Part shown: piece after piece, positions 2,827 to 28,310 of the stretch | How the letters are laid out: every line of letters starts with the position of its first letter | How positions within the stretch are numbered: position 1 is the stretch's first letter | Sequence record: NC_054915.1 | Length of the DNA: 64,000 bases | Source of the DNA: Escherichia phage vB_EcoM_G8 | Direction: 5' to 3' (one strand) | Made by a program: the position numbers and the translations under genes | The notes under the pieces: model-generated | Seen by the model: only the letters and a program-made list of their open reading frames with translations | What the model was told of the DNA's origin: nothing | Databases searched by the model: none

Positions 2827-3002
2827 ATATCAAGAACCGTCATTGAAATGCAAAATAAAATTATTGAAATAAATCCATCTGGAGTGCTAAAGAACCCAAT
2901 CCAACATGCTTTAGTGAATAGATAAAATGCAAGAAAAAGTATCACATATCCAAGAAATATCATTATATCAAACTCCGTATAAAGCTAAAGGGCCGAAGCC
3001 CT

Positions 3003-4205
3003 TTATTTTGTAATAATGTCAAACTGTTCTTTAAAGCAGAAGCTTGAATCTTGATGCTGATACAAAAATTCATAAGCTTTTTCGCGTTCACGGTCATAAA
3101 GAGTTCGGTCAGATGACAGTTCTTTAATACGCTCGAATGTTGATTCCATGTCATTTTCATCAAACCAAATGATACCGCTATCATGCGAGGTCAAAGGAGT
3201 ATTATCAACACGGAATTTTAAATTTTCGCCAGTAGATTTCCAAAATACCGGAATTGTTCCACATGCACCAAGCTCGAGATGAGTATATTCTAAAGAGCGC
3301 TGTAGATATTTTTTATCCAACTTACTCAACTGATAACCAAATCCGGATTTACTCATGCGTTCAAGCATTTCGCTATTTACATAACGGTCAAGAATTTGCG
3401 TTGGCAAATTAGGAGCAATTTTAATTTGGTCTACTTGATGAAGACGATAATACTCGTATGGAATTCCTTTTTCTTTAATAGGAATGAACGCTGGAGAACG
3501 TTCCAGACCTTCCATAATAGTACTTAGTCCTGCAGGTTTAAGATGTTTTTCATGAAAATCAAACATCTGATAAAAACCTTTCCATGTAGTCGTACGACCA
3601 ATCCAACGGTTGATATTCATGTTAATTTCAGAAACATCTTTCCAGTAGGTTGATCGAACCTTCGCAATATCCATAGGAGGCTGAAAGTTGTATACAGTCG
3701 GTGCTTCTTCAATATCATCAAACAGAGAAACTGTTTCTGGATACCATTCTTTCATCAGAACTTTATTAAAATCGCCATTATCAGAATGACTAAAAATAAC
3801 ATCAGCTCGACGAACAGTTTCTTCTAATCCCAAATTTCGGCGCAAAGAAAGAGAAGAATGGTCATGTTGATAAACTACAACACGAACCGAAGGTTTAATG
3901 TTATCAATAATTTTTTTATAGTTATTAATAGTGTCTTCTTCAACTGAAGTAGCAGGAACTGAATTGATAATTAGAATATCACAATCATTTACCAGCTTAA
4001 GTGTTTTATCGTATTCTTTTGCCAATAAAACCGGAATTGAAAATGATTTATAATCATGCGCACAGTTACGAGTAAATGATTTATCTTTAGCATAAACCAA
4101 AGTTACTTCATGACCATTTTTAATAAACCAATCACGCTGCTCAAGAGAAAATTTAGTTACACCGCAACCTTCAAGACCCCGAGCCATAAAAATGCAAATA
4201 CGCAT
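3003..4205 (-). CDS. agt: DNA alpha-glucosyltransferase
   Basis: 400 aa from ATG at 4205 (ORF track start at 4226 is an upstream TTG); AAGAGGAAA Shine-Dalgarno; N-terminus MRICIFMARGLEGCGVTKF matches recalled T4 a-gt. Confidence 0.9.
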   Translation of the reverse strand: MRICIFMARGLEGCGVTKFSLEQRDWFIKNGHEVTLVYAKDKSFTRNCAHDYKSFSIPVLLAKEYDKTLKLVNDCDILIINSVPATSVEEDTINNYKKIIDNIKPSVRVVVYQHDHSSLSLRRNLGLEETVRRADVIFSHSDNGDFNKVLMKEWYPETVSLFDDIEEAPTVYNFQPPMDIAKVRSTYWKDVSEINMNINRWIGRTTTWKGFYQMFDFHEKHLKPAGLSTIMEGLERSPAFIPIKEKGIPYEYYRLHQVDQIKIAPNLPTQILDRYVNSEMLERMSKSGFGYQLSKLDKKYLQRSLEYTHLELGACGTIPVFWKSTGENLKFRVDNTPLTSHDSGIIWFDENDMESTFERIKELSSDRTLYDREREKAYEFLYQHQDSSFCFKEQFDIITK

Positions 4206-25709: not shown

Positions 25710-25891
25710 AAGGAATTTATATAATCAATGAGTTCTTGTTCTTTATTATCGAATTCTTTAGAAAGTTCTTCGTACTCGTTTGCACTAAAAGGACCGCATT
25801 CATTACAAACTTTTTCCAATTCACTATTTTTATCCATAACTTCGTGGATAAGAGAAAAGAGTCTGTCTTTTTGTTCTTTACTTAAACTCAT
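25706..25891 (-). CDS. Hypothetical acidic small protein
   Basis: Minus-strand ORF 61 aa. Confidence 0.4.
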   Translation of the reverse strand: MSLSKEQKDRLFSLIHEVMDKNSELEKVCNECGPFSANEYEELSKEFDNKEQELIDYINSL

Positions 25892-26057
25892 ATATTAATT
25901 TCCAGAAGTTTTAAAATAATTCGCTTTTGCTTAAATATTTCCATAGTTAAATGATCAGTATCTTTTTGGCCAATTCCAATGGCAAAACCTTTATTAGCAG
26001 CGAGTTCAATTAAATTATCAAGTTCACGTGACACTTCATATTGTAACTCAGAACTAT

Positions 26058-26270
26058 TCATTTCGGTTTACCTTCTTTAACGAAATCTGGATAAGGATAA
26101 AATCCCGAATAAAATCCTTCACCTTTATGATTGATGCATCCTTTATTAGAACAATAGCACCAATAATCGAAATCACAAGCCATTTCATCGTTGCATAAAG
26201 CAAAAACAACTGGCCATTTACACTTTTCACAGTGGGCATTTTTAAGAATACTAGTTTGGCTCATAACCAT
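26058..26270 (-). CDS. Cys-rich small protein
   Basis: 70 aa with multiple CxxC-like pairs; preferred over the overlapping 26054-26239 frame. Confidence 0.4.
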   Translation of the reverse strand: MVMSQTSILKNAHCEKCKWPVVFALCNDEMACDFDYWCYCSNKGCINHKGEGFYSGFYPYPDFVKEGKPK

Positions 26271-26488
26271 GTCACCTTTAAGCAGTATTCTTCTACATGC
26301 TGTTTACGACCTTTCTTATCAATAAAGGTATATTCAACGAATGTTCCAATGTAGTCTTTATCTACATCATGTGGACTATTAATTGGACATTTAGTACGGC
26401 AAATGCGCTCCCATTGACGAATAATTACTGCCTTATTCTTTGGGTCATATGGATGTGGATAATGTATATTCATAATAATGGTTCCCAA
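26261..26488 (-). CDS. Hypothetical small protein
   Basis: Minus-strand ORF 75 aa. Confidence 0.4.
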   Translation of the reverse strand: MGTIIMNIHYPHPYDPKNKAVIIRQWERICRTKCPINSPHDVDKDYIGTFVEYTFIDKKGRKQHVEEYCLKVTWL

Positions 26489-26937
26489 TCAACAATCACA
26501 ATTTCTAATTTAGAGGAATATGTATCTAAAATCCCCTCAATAATATCCCAGTTCCCTTTACCTATGCCTGCACCAATCCTAGGCATATAGATTGTAGGTT
26601 TAATCAGTTTATTTTCACCAAACTCATTTAATTCTAACATACAATTCATTAAAGCGGAATATTCAAAATTTGGTCCTGGTTGAAATTGAGTATAAAGATT
26701 AAAGCAGTAAGCTTTATGAGTCCTAAAGTATTTTTCATAGACTGAATAAGAACCAAGTTTAGTTACATCACCCCATTCAGTCTGTAATTTATCAGCTTCC
26801 AAAATTTTAGGGAAAGCTTTGGTTAATTGACCTGCGACTCCAGCTTTCATCGTATGAAAACAATTGCATCCATGCGCAATATTTTTACCTTCAGTGAAAA
26901 GGGCGACAATATCGCCCTTGATATATTTTACAATCAT
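26470..26937 (-). CDS. Macro-domain-like protein (putative ADP-ribose binding/processing)
   Basis: 155 aa; pattern GDIVAL...NIAHGCNCFHTMKAGVAGQL...PRIGAGIGKGNWDII resembles macro-domain signatures; by eye only. Confidence 0.5.
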   Translation of the reverse strand: MIVKYIKGDIVALFTEGKNIAHGCNCFHTMKAGVAGQLTKAFPKILEADKLQTEWGDVTKLGSYSVYEKYFRTHKAYCFNLYTQFQPGPNFEYSALMNCMLELNEFGENKLIKPTIYMPRIGAGIGKGNWDIIEGILDTYSSKLEIVIVDWEPLL

Positions 26938-27275
26938 TTAGTACTCAATCCTCGATTATAAGAATCTACCAAACGGTCAACCATTGAATGACAAGCGGCT
27001 TTATCTTTCTCCTCCGCAACTGAACATTCTAAGGTATTCCACTTTTTAGCATATCGTTTTAATAATGTATCGTTTTTGTATCTGCTTGATTTATCTCTTT
27101 CTCCGTCTTTATATGCATATATTAATTTCTGCGCAAATTCAGCTTGGCATGCTTTATTTTTCCCACAATAATCTGCCGCAGTGCGATTTACATATTCTCT
27201 AATTTCAGTATATGATGTATCTGCTAACGCAGAAAATGAAATTAATCCTATACATAAAACCAAAATTTTAGTCAT
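26934..27275 (-). CDS. Secreted/periplasmic protein with signal peptide
   Basis: 113 aa; cleavable signal peptide (MTKILVLCIGLISFSALA); four Cys. Confidence 0.5.
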   Translation of the reverse strand: MTKILVLCIGLISFSALADTSYTEIREYVNRTAADYCGKNKACQAEFAQKLIYAYKDGERDKSSRYKNDTLLKRYAKKWNTLECSVAEEKDKAACHSMVDRLVDSYNRGLSTK

Positions 27276-27813
27276 TTACTATTTCCAAAAGTTTATTATT
27301 TTTAAGGTAATTAGCCTTTTCTAGGACTTCAGAAGCATATTTAGAACCTGCTTTAACATTCCATCCCGAATTATAAGAGGATATTGCTTTTCTTATATCG
27401 CCCTTATGTATATTTAACCAATAAGAAAGTTCAATGTACGCCCAGGAAGCTGAATTGGACCGTTTATTCAACATTCTTTTTATTTCAGCATCGGTCATAT
27501 TATAACCAAGTTCCTTAACTCTTGCTCGCATAGTAGGCAAATAATTTTGGAACATTCCGTAGGCGTGATGCTTTGGTTTAGATTTTAAATTAACTCCGCC
27601 AGAGCTTTCTTGCCATAAAATAGCAGCCATTATATGACCTAATCCGCTCTTGTGGATATTTTTGTGTGTTTTATATTTTCCATCCTTAGAAAATTGTTCC
27701 CCGAATTGATACGCGTAACGCATGTTATCGAGTTGGACATTACTGAAAGTATGCTCGGAGCTATGTGCCATCATTGAAATGGCCAATAGACCAGCGAGTA
27801 GTGCTTTTCTCAT
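27268..27813 (-). CDS. Periplasmic lytic transglycosylase-like protein (SLT/lysozyme-like fold)
   Basis: 181 aa; signal peptide (MRKALLAGLLAISMMAHS); SLT-like motifs WQESSGG and YGMFQ. Confidence 0.55.
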   Translation of the reverse strand: MRKALLAGLLAISMMAHSSEHTFSNVQLDNMRYAYQFGEQFSKDGKYKTHKNIHKSGLGHIMAAILWQESSGGVNLKSKPKHHAYGMFQNYLPTMRARVKELGYNMTDAEIKRMLNKRSNSASWAYIELSYWLNIHKGDIRKAISSYNSGWNVKAGSKYASEVLEKANYLKNNKLLEIVND

Positions 27814-27820
27814 GCTTACC

Positions 27821-28282
27821 TCATTGAGTTTTAATTACTGCTTTAGAAGCCTTTCCTGGTAAACGACGACTGTTGATAATTGCCATCCTGCATTGAAGTG
27901 ACGGGTTTTTGAACTTCTCATTAGGCTTACAAACCGTAAATCCAAGCCAAAGATTTCCATCTGTAATTTCCAAACGCCCAGGACGATATTCAACCCCATC
28001 AATAAAATCCTCGTCAATGTCAGGACGCGGAGGCATACTCAGGAATTCATTAACTTCTAAAACATGGTCTTTTATTTTATGGAATAATTCAAAAACATAT
28101 GTCTCATCAATCTCCCGTTGAATTGCACGATCAAGAAGATGTTGAGAATATTTTAGATGAAACGATGAGACTCCTGCTGCTTTTGATGCCTCACGAATCT
28201 CATTGTTAATTTGACGAAACTCCGACTCAAAGTGACGACGAAGCTTATTTCGACGGATAAAAACTTCTGTATTGATAGTCAT
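27821..28282 (-). CDS. regB: Endoribonuclease RegB
   Basis: 153 aa; length, position between tk and e and early promoter at 28311-28339 fit recalled T4 RegB. Confidence 0.8.
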   Translation of the reverse strand: MTINTEVFIRRNKLRRHFESEFRQINNEIREASKAAGVSSFHLKYSQHLLDRAIQREIDETYVFELFHKIKDHVLEVNEFLSMPPRPDIDEDFIDGVEYRPGRLEITDGNLWLGFTVCKPNEKFKNPSLQCRMAIINSRRLPGKASKAVIKTQ

Positions 28283-28310
28283 GTTATTCTCCTCTTAACT
28301 GATAGAAAAA

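Follow-up and report, generated by a model that had tools for sequence, protein, structure and literature searches.

Phage T4 carries between vs and tk.3 a small macrodomain gene, tk.4, which a recent preprint using HIDEN-SEQ singled out as the sole T4 gene significantly needed under the host defence DarTG2 and renamed adfM (10.1101/2025.11.20.689424). The best solved relatives of its product are SCO6735 of Streptomyces coelicolor, a thymidine-ADP-ribose DNA hydrolase (PMC9411070), and BT1257 of Bacteroides thetaiotaomicron, both ALC1-like macrodomains of the glutamine type. Upstream of tk.4 lie vs, whose label says that its product modifies valyl-tRNA synthetase (ValRS), and vs.1; macro and SLT similarities in T4-like phages were reported in 2006 (PMC1524935). 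Here we analyse the corresponding genes of Escherichia phage vB_EcoM_G8 within a stretch of 64,000 nucleotides from sequence record NC_054915.1 (the window). Taking the three genes jointly, we consider it very probable that Tk.4 is a glutamine-type eraser directed against DarT2, that Vs.1 is a periplasmic lytic transglycosylase, and that Vs is likely to be exported. An earlier note on this DNA had described a macro-domain-like open reading frame (ORF) followed by two signal-peptide proteins, one of them resembling a lytic transglycosylase; as first stated that finding was already known, the domain content having been in the literature since 2003-2006 and the counter-defence role since 2025. 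The window thus carries an apparent anti-DarTG2 macrodomain and a conserved vs.1 transglycosylase gene and otherwise re-derives known T4 annotation, and what remains of value is the glutamine-type active site of AdfM and the clash of the vs label with the secretory anatomy of Vs and its pairing with vs.1.

The stretch from 26200 to 28300 has 98.6% DNA identity to Escherichia phage AR1, whose features beneath the match are tk.3, tk.4, vs, vs.1 and regB, and 644 phage records align with 80% or more of it; protein identities to T4 are 98.1% for Tk.4, 96.5% for Vs and 100% for Vs.1. Judged by these identities, this is the tk.4-vs-vs.1 segment of a phage of the T4 type (Tequatrovirus). The earlier note had allowed for the possibility that the three genes would prove to be well-characterised T4 orthologues of unrelated function; all three are indeed T4 orthologues, and the macro and SLT matches stand. 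The three ORFs are all present on the minus strand where that note had placed them, and the motifs that it had picked out (GDIVAL, NIAHGCNCFHTMKAGVAGQL, PRIGAGIGKGNWDII, WQESSGG and YGMFQ) all occur verbatim in them. In T4, transcriptomics and proteomics class tk.4, vs and vs.1 as early in RNA and middle in protein, and mass spectrometry of infected cells detected Vs as well as Vs.1 (PMC9697503 supplement), so that the three ORFs can be taken as real, expressed genes.

Tk.4 scores 25 bits against the Pfam Macro model PF01661 (cut-off 22). A family profile built from 43 homologues finds among structures in the PDB BT1257 (E 4e-19), TARG1 (9e-15), SCO6735 (9e-15), the yeast protein Poa1p (3e-14) and DarG (1e-12); matches of the ALC1/TARG1 class span E 4e-19 to 4e-10 and other macrodomain classes, such as coronavirus Mac1, reach only ~1e-3. 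The macro-domain call made earlier for this ORF is thereby upheld and given a class. The active site was mapped through profile alignments to solved structures, with conservation taken from the same 43 homologues. A motif N80-x-Y82-T83-Q84 is invariant, with Q84 present in 43/43, as is N25, the Asn that comes after the first strand, and the glycine-rich phosphate-binding loop P-x-I-G-x-G is present, its P119, I121 and G124 being invariant and G122 nearly so. Q84 falls opposite K84 of TARG1 and Q85 of SCO6735, G126 falls opposite D125 of TARG1, and the SCO6735 equivalents H22, N25, Q84 and G122-x-G124 are all kept. As read from these alignments, the active site of Tk.4 is of the glutamine type found in SCO6735 and BT1257, and not of the DarG/TARG1 lysine type, an assignment that is the addition of the present analysis; common to Tk.4 and its two best solved relatives are Gln for Lys, Gly or Ala for TARG1 D125, the Asn, the His and the G-x-G loop.

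In SCO6735, hydrolysis of thymidine-ADP-ribose is lost on substitution Q85A and likewise on N27S, and the mechanism proposed is water-mediated (PMC9411070). A glutamine-type AdfM predicts a mechanism of this kind rather than the lysine mechanism of DarG and TARG1, and predicts that Q84A and N25S would abolish counter-defence. In the mechanism that we propose, Tk.4 would remain in the cytoplasm and would most likely hydrolyse ADP-ribose placed by DarT2 from the thymidines of single-stranded phage DNA, Q84, held by N25, positioning the distal ribose for attack by water; with the ADP-ribose removed, phage replication could go on.

The comparison with DarG of DarTG2 and with human TARG1 is instructive, as Tk.4 resembles both in its ALC1-like fold class, in antagonism to DarT2, and presumably in acting on thymidine-linked ADP-ribose in single-stranded DNA, but lacks TARG1 Asp125, has Q84 in place of the catalytic lysine of the DarG antitoxin (TaqDarG K80, equivalent to TARG1 K84), has no DarT-binding C-terminal domain, and has as its neighbours vs and tk.3 and not darT. 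Against the full-length DarG model NF048014, Tk.4 covers only model positions 2-146 of 338 and scores 24.3 bits where the cut-off is 250. Tk.4 is therefore predicted to act like an eraser of the DarG/SCO6735 type and yet is not a member of the DarG family. It also departs from SCO6735 and BT1257 in being phage-borne and an orphan, and in its mobile loop: BT1257 and SCO6735 have insertions of 6 and 5 residues, respectively, relative to the Tk.4 profile, with which TARG1 aligns gap-free, and the Tk.4 family has neither these 5-6 residues nor K89, T4 Tk.4 also being without K34.

The link to ADP-ribosylating host defence, raised in the earlier note, is well grounded in T4 and has already been published: insertion counts in tk.4 fall from 288 to 45 under DarTG2 (log2 fold change -2.64, adjusted p 0) and a clean tk.4 knockout is sensitised to DarTG2 (10.1101/2025.11.20.689424 and its supplement). 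T4 lacking both adfA and adfN is still resistant to DarTG2 (PMC11825919), which fits with a requirement for tk.4. The other suggestion of the note, that the macrodomain acts on ADP-ribosyltransferases encoded by the phage itself, found no support.

Several points weigh against hydrolysis of thymidine-linked ADP-ribose by Tk.4. The AdfM result comes from a preprint and its phenotype would fit either hydrolysis or binding of DarT2; the longer mobile loop and the DNA-contacting K34 and K89 of SCO6735 are missing; SCO6735 itself also inhibits DarT by interaction (PMC9411070); and the literature searched yielded no biochemical assay of Tk.4, Vs or Vs.1, either from vB_EcoM_G8 or from T4. Protection might thus come about without turnover, through binding and blocking of DarT2 (sequestration) or through binding of ADP-ribosylated DNA. 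Catalytically dead macrodomains of SCO6735, DarG and TARG1 still inhibit DarT in vitro, that of SCO6735 most strongly (PMC9411070), and the phenotype of the T4 tk.4 knockout does not tell the mechanisms apart. However, Q84, N25, H22 and G122-x-G124, conserved across the homologues, match the residues that catalysis by SCO6735 needs, and the part of DarG that binds DarT, its C-terminal domain, is the part that Tk.4 does not have, so that we regard protection without turnover as unlikely.

A quite different reading is that Tk.4 is a Poa1p-like ADP-ribose 1''-phosphate phosphatase that clears a by-product of RNA 2'-phosphotransfer and does not repair DNA. This would agree with the label 'phosphatase' in RefSeq and PHROG, with the match of the Poa1p structures to the profile, and with the A1pp domain matches reported in 2006 (PMC1524935). 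Yet the nearest solved relatives are BT1257, SCO6735 and TARG1 and not Poa1p, the sole recorded phenotype is sensitivity to DarTG2, and the label goes back to the name of a generic SMART domain and is without support. The RNA repair pathway of T4 (Pnkp/Rnl), moreover, is not known to produce Appr>p, which also counts against a phosphatase role, and we judge it most improbable.

Compared with T4 Tk.4/AdfM, which has the same length, the protein encoded here differs by A15T, G31K and S32A, the latter two lying in the ribose/phosphate-binding loop. The resulting K31-A32 (26842-26847), where T4 has G31-S32, adjoins the site at which SCO6735 has K34, a residue that contacts DNA, and could alter substrate handling. 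In two IMG/VR contigs (L012 and L013), regB, vs.1 and vs are 97-99% identical to those of the window and tk.4 (2839-3303) only 57%; the allele has been replaced at the anti-DarT macrodomain alone, as would be expected of a counter-defence gene under diversifying pressure.

The enzymes with which Vs.1 is best compared are those of lytic transglycosylase family 1 (GH23): the C-domain of E. coli Slt70, MltE/EmtA, and the small specialised enzymes EtgA and VirB1-type proteins. Vs.1 scores above the curated threshold of Pfam SLT (PF01464) and a fold search with its confident AlphaFold2 model (pLDDT 89) returns the GH23 fold, in agreement with the SLT call of the earlier note. The family 1 motifs are present as E69-S70, G86-M-F-Q89, S146-Y-N-S-G150 and Y159, and in 33 homologues, down to 40% identity, the residues E69, G86, F88, Q89, Y147, N148, G150 and Y159 are invariant. 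In a pairwise alignment anchored on the motifs, E69-S70 corresponds to E478-S479 of Slt70, GMFQ to GLMQ493-496 and YNSG to YNAG552-555, with motif spacings that agree within two residues.

Signal peptides were called with a hydropathy and n-h-c heuristic, with RI, which lies in the same window and is experimentally cleaved, as the reference; all cleavage positions are predicted. The maximal 10-residue Kyte-Doolittle hydropathy near the N-terminus is 3.04 for Vs, 2.40 for Vs.1 and 2.37 for RI, and lies between -0.14 and 1.56 for Tk.4, RegB and Tk. Both Vs and Vs.1 also show an n-h-c pattern with small residues at -3 and -1: Vs.1 begins with R2 and K3, then 13 uncharged residues, then AHS/S (the slash marks the predicted cleavage), and Vs has K3, then 15 uncharged residues, then ALA/D. 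A signal-peptide-like start is found in 33/33 aligned Vs.1 homologues, and the prediction that both proteins carry signal peptides is upheld.

These features are best read as those of a soluble family 1 lytic transglycosylase of the periplasm that is made from early transcripts, and Vs.1 is, as had been claimed, distinct from the lysozyme domain of gp5 and from the endolysin e. It would be exported through Sec, cleaved after AHS18 and active in the periplasm as a single-domain enzyme, with Glu69 as the acid catalyst in cutting MurNAc-GlcNAc bonds to leave 1,6-anhydroMurNAc ends. Unlike the comparison enzymes, Vs.1 is very divergent, soluble and not a lipoprotein, the product of an early/middle phage gene, and has no associated secretion machine.

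Some observations speak against a lytic transglycosylase. The divergence is such that the Vs.1 family profile finds no chain at E <= 0.1 among PDB sequences, and a direct hidden Markov model search of Vs.1 against Slt70 aligned the YNAG motif alone; in addition, the fold alone cannot tell a lytic transglycosylase from a g-type lysozyme. Vs.1 could therefore be a silent or murein-binding relic of GH23, or else a hydrolytic lysozyme. Literature searches by gene name and UniProt accession returned no functional study of Vs.1 but only the domain note of 2006, and vs.1 is non-essential in LB. T4 e mutants, too, fail to lyse though they carry vs.1. Against a relic, however, stand the four family 1 motifs, in which Glu69 and its companions are invariant among homologues as distant as those described above, which argues for retained catalysis. 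A lysozyme is disfavoured by the lack of any Asp from E69 to GMFQ, g-type lysozymes carrying a second acidic residue between the catalytic Glu and the position of this motif. On balance, neither a relic nor a lysozyme appears likely.

In all, 2044 phage records carry a relative of Vs.1, among them Ackermannviridae and Felixounavirus, in which the label is sometimes 'putative lysin'; in Det7 (Ackermannviridae; gp70, L010:1453-2070) and garuso (Felixounavirus; gp58, L011:1501-2049) a secreted SLT protein like Vs.1 is followed by no vs-like gene.

The third protein, Vs, is the one whose annotation is in question. It belongs to PHROG 1256 (E 8e-40) and occupies the same locus as T4 vs, so that its orthology is secure; the earlier note had described it accurately as a Cys-containing protein with a signal peptide but had not recognised in it the named gene vs. 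Although vs has been listed for decades as the gene for a modifier of a cytoplasmic enzyme, the predicted anatomy of its product is that of an exported periplasmic protein and is a poor fit with a cytoplasmic target. A signal-like N-terminus and exactly four Cys, the invariant C37, C43, C84 and C95, are found in 26 of 27 distinct Vs members from at least 10 genera, the exception being a truncated gene, and they persist down to ~21-30% identity. The aligned Vs proteins of T4 type, which come from several genera of Tevenvirinae and range down to 46% identity, vary freely at the N-terminus and have indels there but remain signal-like, and the four Cys are invariant. Members of a second branch were found in Acinetobacter phage Mokit, Klebsiella phage Roth51, Krischvirus JEP8 and Pseudomonas phage PspYZU05; their homology extends along the whole protein (hhalign probability 97.9%, E 4.8e-13), and the four Cys align. 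An exhaustive profile search of 1.84 billion representatives returned only eight clusters, with no named cellular relatives among them; in the four that were inspected (P0204, P0205, P0206 and P0210), the full-length proteins keep the signal peptide and the four Cys.

It is quite probable, judging from these features, that Vs is exported. It would most likely be cleaved after ALA18 and fold into a small helical protein built around two disulfides, with a mass of 12.9 kDa in full and 11.0 kDa when mature. With a His tag at its N-terminus, Vs proved insoluble in the cytoplasm of E. coli (PMC8076793), which is what a blocked secretory protein would show. The AlphaFold2 model is poor (pLDDT 59.6), and no fold was assigned, as Foldseek returned nothing below E 2 and the Vs profile gave only noise (E 0.5-1) against PDB sequences; the low confidence of the model weighs against the picture of a disulfide-bonded helical protein, and the four Cys could bind metal instead of forming disulfides. 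A lipoprotein was considered and rejected, C8 having no preceding lipobox and not being conserved. The c-region of the signal reads SFSALA/D here and SFSASASA/D in T4, a deletion of two residues and an S-to-L change, and the mature proteins of the two phages differ only at the last residue.

In Tevenvirinae, the order regB-vs.1-vs-tk.4 was kept in 30/30 loci, and vs comes immediately after vs.1, with the two genes abutting or overlapping, at all vs loci examined, these 30 and those of distant genera. There regB or tk.4 are not always neighbours of the pair, and in Acinetobacter phage Mokit vs follows vs.1 though neither regB nor tk.4 is adjacent. The overlap of 8 nt between the two genes and the weak Shine-Dalgarno sequence of vs make translational coupling likely. 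Vs would then probably be made by coupling to Vs.1 and may act together with it.

Fitness data from T4 bear on the pair. Mean HIDEN-SEQ insertion counts in LB are 26.6 for vs, 22.6 for vs.1, 290 for tk.4, 179 for regB and 652 for vs.3, and in M9 glucose at 30 °C with the empty vector 9.9, 9.4, 288, 267 and 611, respectively (10.1101/2025.11.20.689424; Extended Data Table 6, sheets S7 and S8); insertions in vs and vs.1 are 10-30 times rarer than in these flanking genes, and the shortfall is seen in both media. From LB to M9 the log2 fold change is -2.19 for vs (adjusted p 0) and -0.87 for vs.1 (p 0.0055, adjusted 0.155), and the preprint points out only vs (10.1101/2025.11.20.689424). Simple transcriptional polarity is disfavoured, as regB lies upstream and its insertions show no depletion. 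Even so, the depletion of both genes could be polarity on a coupled vs, and is equally compatible with a shared function and with lost coupled translation of vs; nor is adjacency decisive in a phage family where synteny is high in general. We regard a functional partnership between Vs and Vs.1 as conceivable but less likely than not.

If there is such a partnership, an analogy may be found in T4 Spackle (gp61.3), a periplasmic inhibitor of gp5 lysozyme that, like Vs, is a T4-encoded protein of ~100 residues, Cys-containing and helical, with a Sec signal peptide. It is tempting to speculate that Vs might regulate or inhibit murein cleavage by Vs.1 as Spackle does for gp5, but the likeness is an analogy only, with no relation of sequence or fold shown, and Spackle has a demonstrated target where Vs has none in the periplasm.

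The opposing view is that Vs is what its label says, a cytoplasmic tau factor that binds host ValRS, with an N-terminus that exports it not at all or only in part and with its place beside vs.1 a matter of synteny. Every database label names it a modifier of ValRS, and gene order is conserved across Tevenvirinae anyway. Tau presumably has a mass of ~10 kDa, near that of Vs in either its mature or its full form. Classical genetic and biochemical work by McClain, Marchin and Neidhardt from 1975 and by Mueller and Marchin from 1977 reportedly connects the vs locus with ValRS in vivo, which speaks against a purely periplasmic Vs. So does the finding that deleting vs impairs plaques of T4 in M9 glucose specifically, a medium in which amino acids are in limiting supply, although this minimal-medium defect suits a periplasmic role as well as one in aminoacylation (10.1101/2025.11.20.689424). 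What is difficult to reconcile with a cytoplasmic tau factor is the canonical Sec signal and four Cys, retained across so divergent a family, and a signal region free to change, as targeting signals typically are and binding interfaces are not. In addition, the vs.1-vs pair is kept in Acinetobacter, Pseudomonas and Klebsiella phages with different flanking genes. Finally, the GenBank record of 1986 names the ORF only 'ORF 60.9', so that the vs assignment must have come later; this, too, counts against the label. We regard a cytoplasmic tau factor as possible but rather doubtful.

The more specific proposal, that Vs is a Sec-exported, disulfide-bonded periplasmic protein forming a two-gene module with Vs.1 in Straboviridae and is not, or not only, a cytoplasmic modifier of ValRS, is itself offered with considerable reserve. 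Should it hold, either the vs/ValRS function, some half a century old, was assigned to an ORF that does not carry it or ValRS is affected only indirectly, a consequence that we hold just as tentatively. The anatomy of Vs, together with its constant place beside Vs.1, casts doubt on a textbook assignment, and the two might offer a first clue to the reason for which many large virulent myoviruses would export a lytic transglycosylase early or in mid-infection, from early RNA.

Beyond T4, the surroundings of the pair vary. A third conserved secreted protein, of 130-147 residues, with a signal peptide and then 'AWE[KQ]', follows vs in Roth51 (L038:2163-2555), Mokit (L009:2324-2749) and PspYZU05 (L041:2123-2566) and is absent from T4 and from the window; the region, with rI nearby, resembles a cluster of periplasmic proteins. 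In Aeromonas phage 31 (L008:2356-2796) no vs was identified from vs.1 to tk.4, where there are instead a 75-residue ORF and a predicted lipoprotein of 146 residues (MKKSIATLIAIGMYGC at its start).

The features of the locus are collected in Table 1. The three genes would be co-transcribed with regB from the early promoter, and no terminator-like site was found on the minus strand within the block ahead of tk.4. A terminator-like hairpin at 26899-26919 on the plus strand was dismissed, being antisense to tk.4, with hairpin counts equal to the shuffled expectation.

Table 1. Positions, within the window, of the tk.4-vs-vs.1 genes, their predicted functional sites and their transcriptional context
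Feature	Position	Strand	Description
tk.4 (adfM)	26470-26937	minus	155 residues; stand-alone macrodomain of the ALC1/TARG1 class
Tk.4 Q84 codon	26686-26688	minus	last residue of N80-x-Y82-T83-Q84
Tk.4 N25 codon	26863-26865	minus	invariant in the family
vs stop/tk.4 start overlap	26934-26937	minus	4 nt, ATGA
vs	26934-27275	minus	113 residues; labelled valyl-tRNA synthetase modifier
Vs C95 codon	26991-26993	minus	invariant Cys
Vs C84 codon	27024-27026	minus	invariant Cys
Vs C43 codon	27147-27149	minus	invariant Cys
Vs C37 codon	27165-27167	minus	invariant Cys
Vs signal peptide (predicted)	27222-27275	minus	residues 1-18, MTKILVLCIGLISFSALA, followed by DTS
vs.1 stop/vs start overlap	27268-27275	minus	8 nt, ATGACTAA
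vs.1	27268-27813	minus	181 residues; predicted secreted GH23/family 1 lytic transglycosylase
Vs.1 Glu69 codon	27607-27609	minus	predicted catalytic residue
Vs.1 signal peptide (predicted)	27760-27813	minus	residues 1-18, MRKALLAGLLAISMMAHS, followed by S
regB (context)	27821-28282	minus	Pfam REGB_T4, 231 bits; first gene of the regB-vs.1-vs-tk.4 block
Sigma-70-type early-promoter-like site	28338-28310	minus	TTTACT-17-TATAAT with TG extension (extended -10); strong; upstream of regB

The genes had been placed between tk and regB, which holds, but tk.1, tk.2 and tk.3 are found there as well, together with two additional small ORFs. For the tk.3 ORF (26261-26488) the mechanical list starts at a TTG and gives 75 residues; T4 tk.3 has 70, from an ATG five codons downstream of the TTG (MNIHYP...), and the corresponding ATG lies at 26471-26473, just downstream of the tk.4 stop. 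The two small ORFs, at 25888-26061 (57 residues) and 26058-26270 (70 residues), are on the minus strand between tk.2 and tk.3, and the second is Cys-rich (CEKCKW...CYCSNKGC). T4 is without small ORFs at this place and AR1 has two (ar1_113 and ar1_114) at the corresponding position, marking the tk.2-tk.3 interval as a small indel region of the tk cluster.

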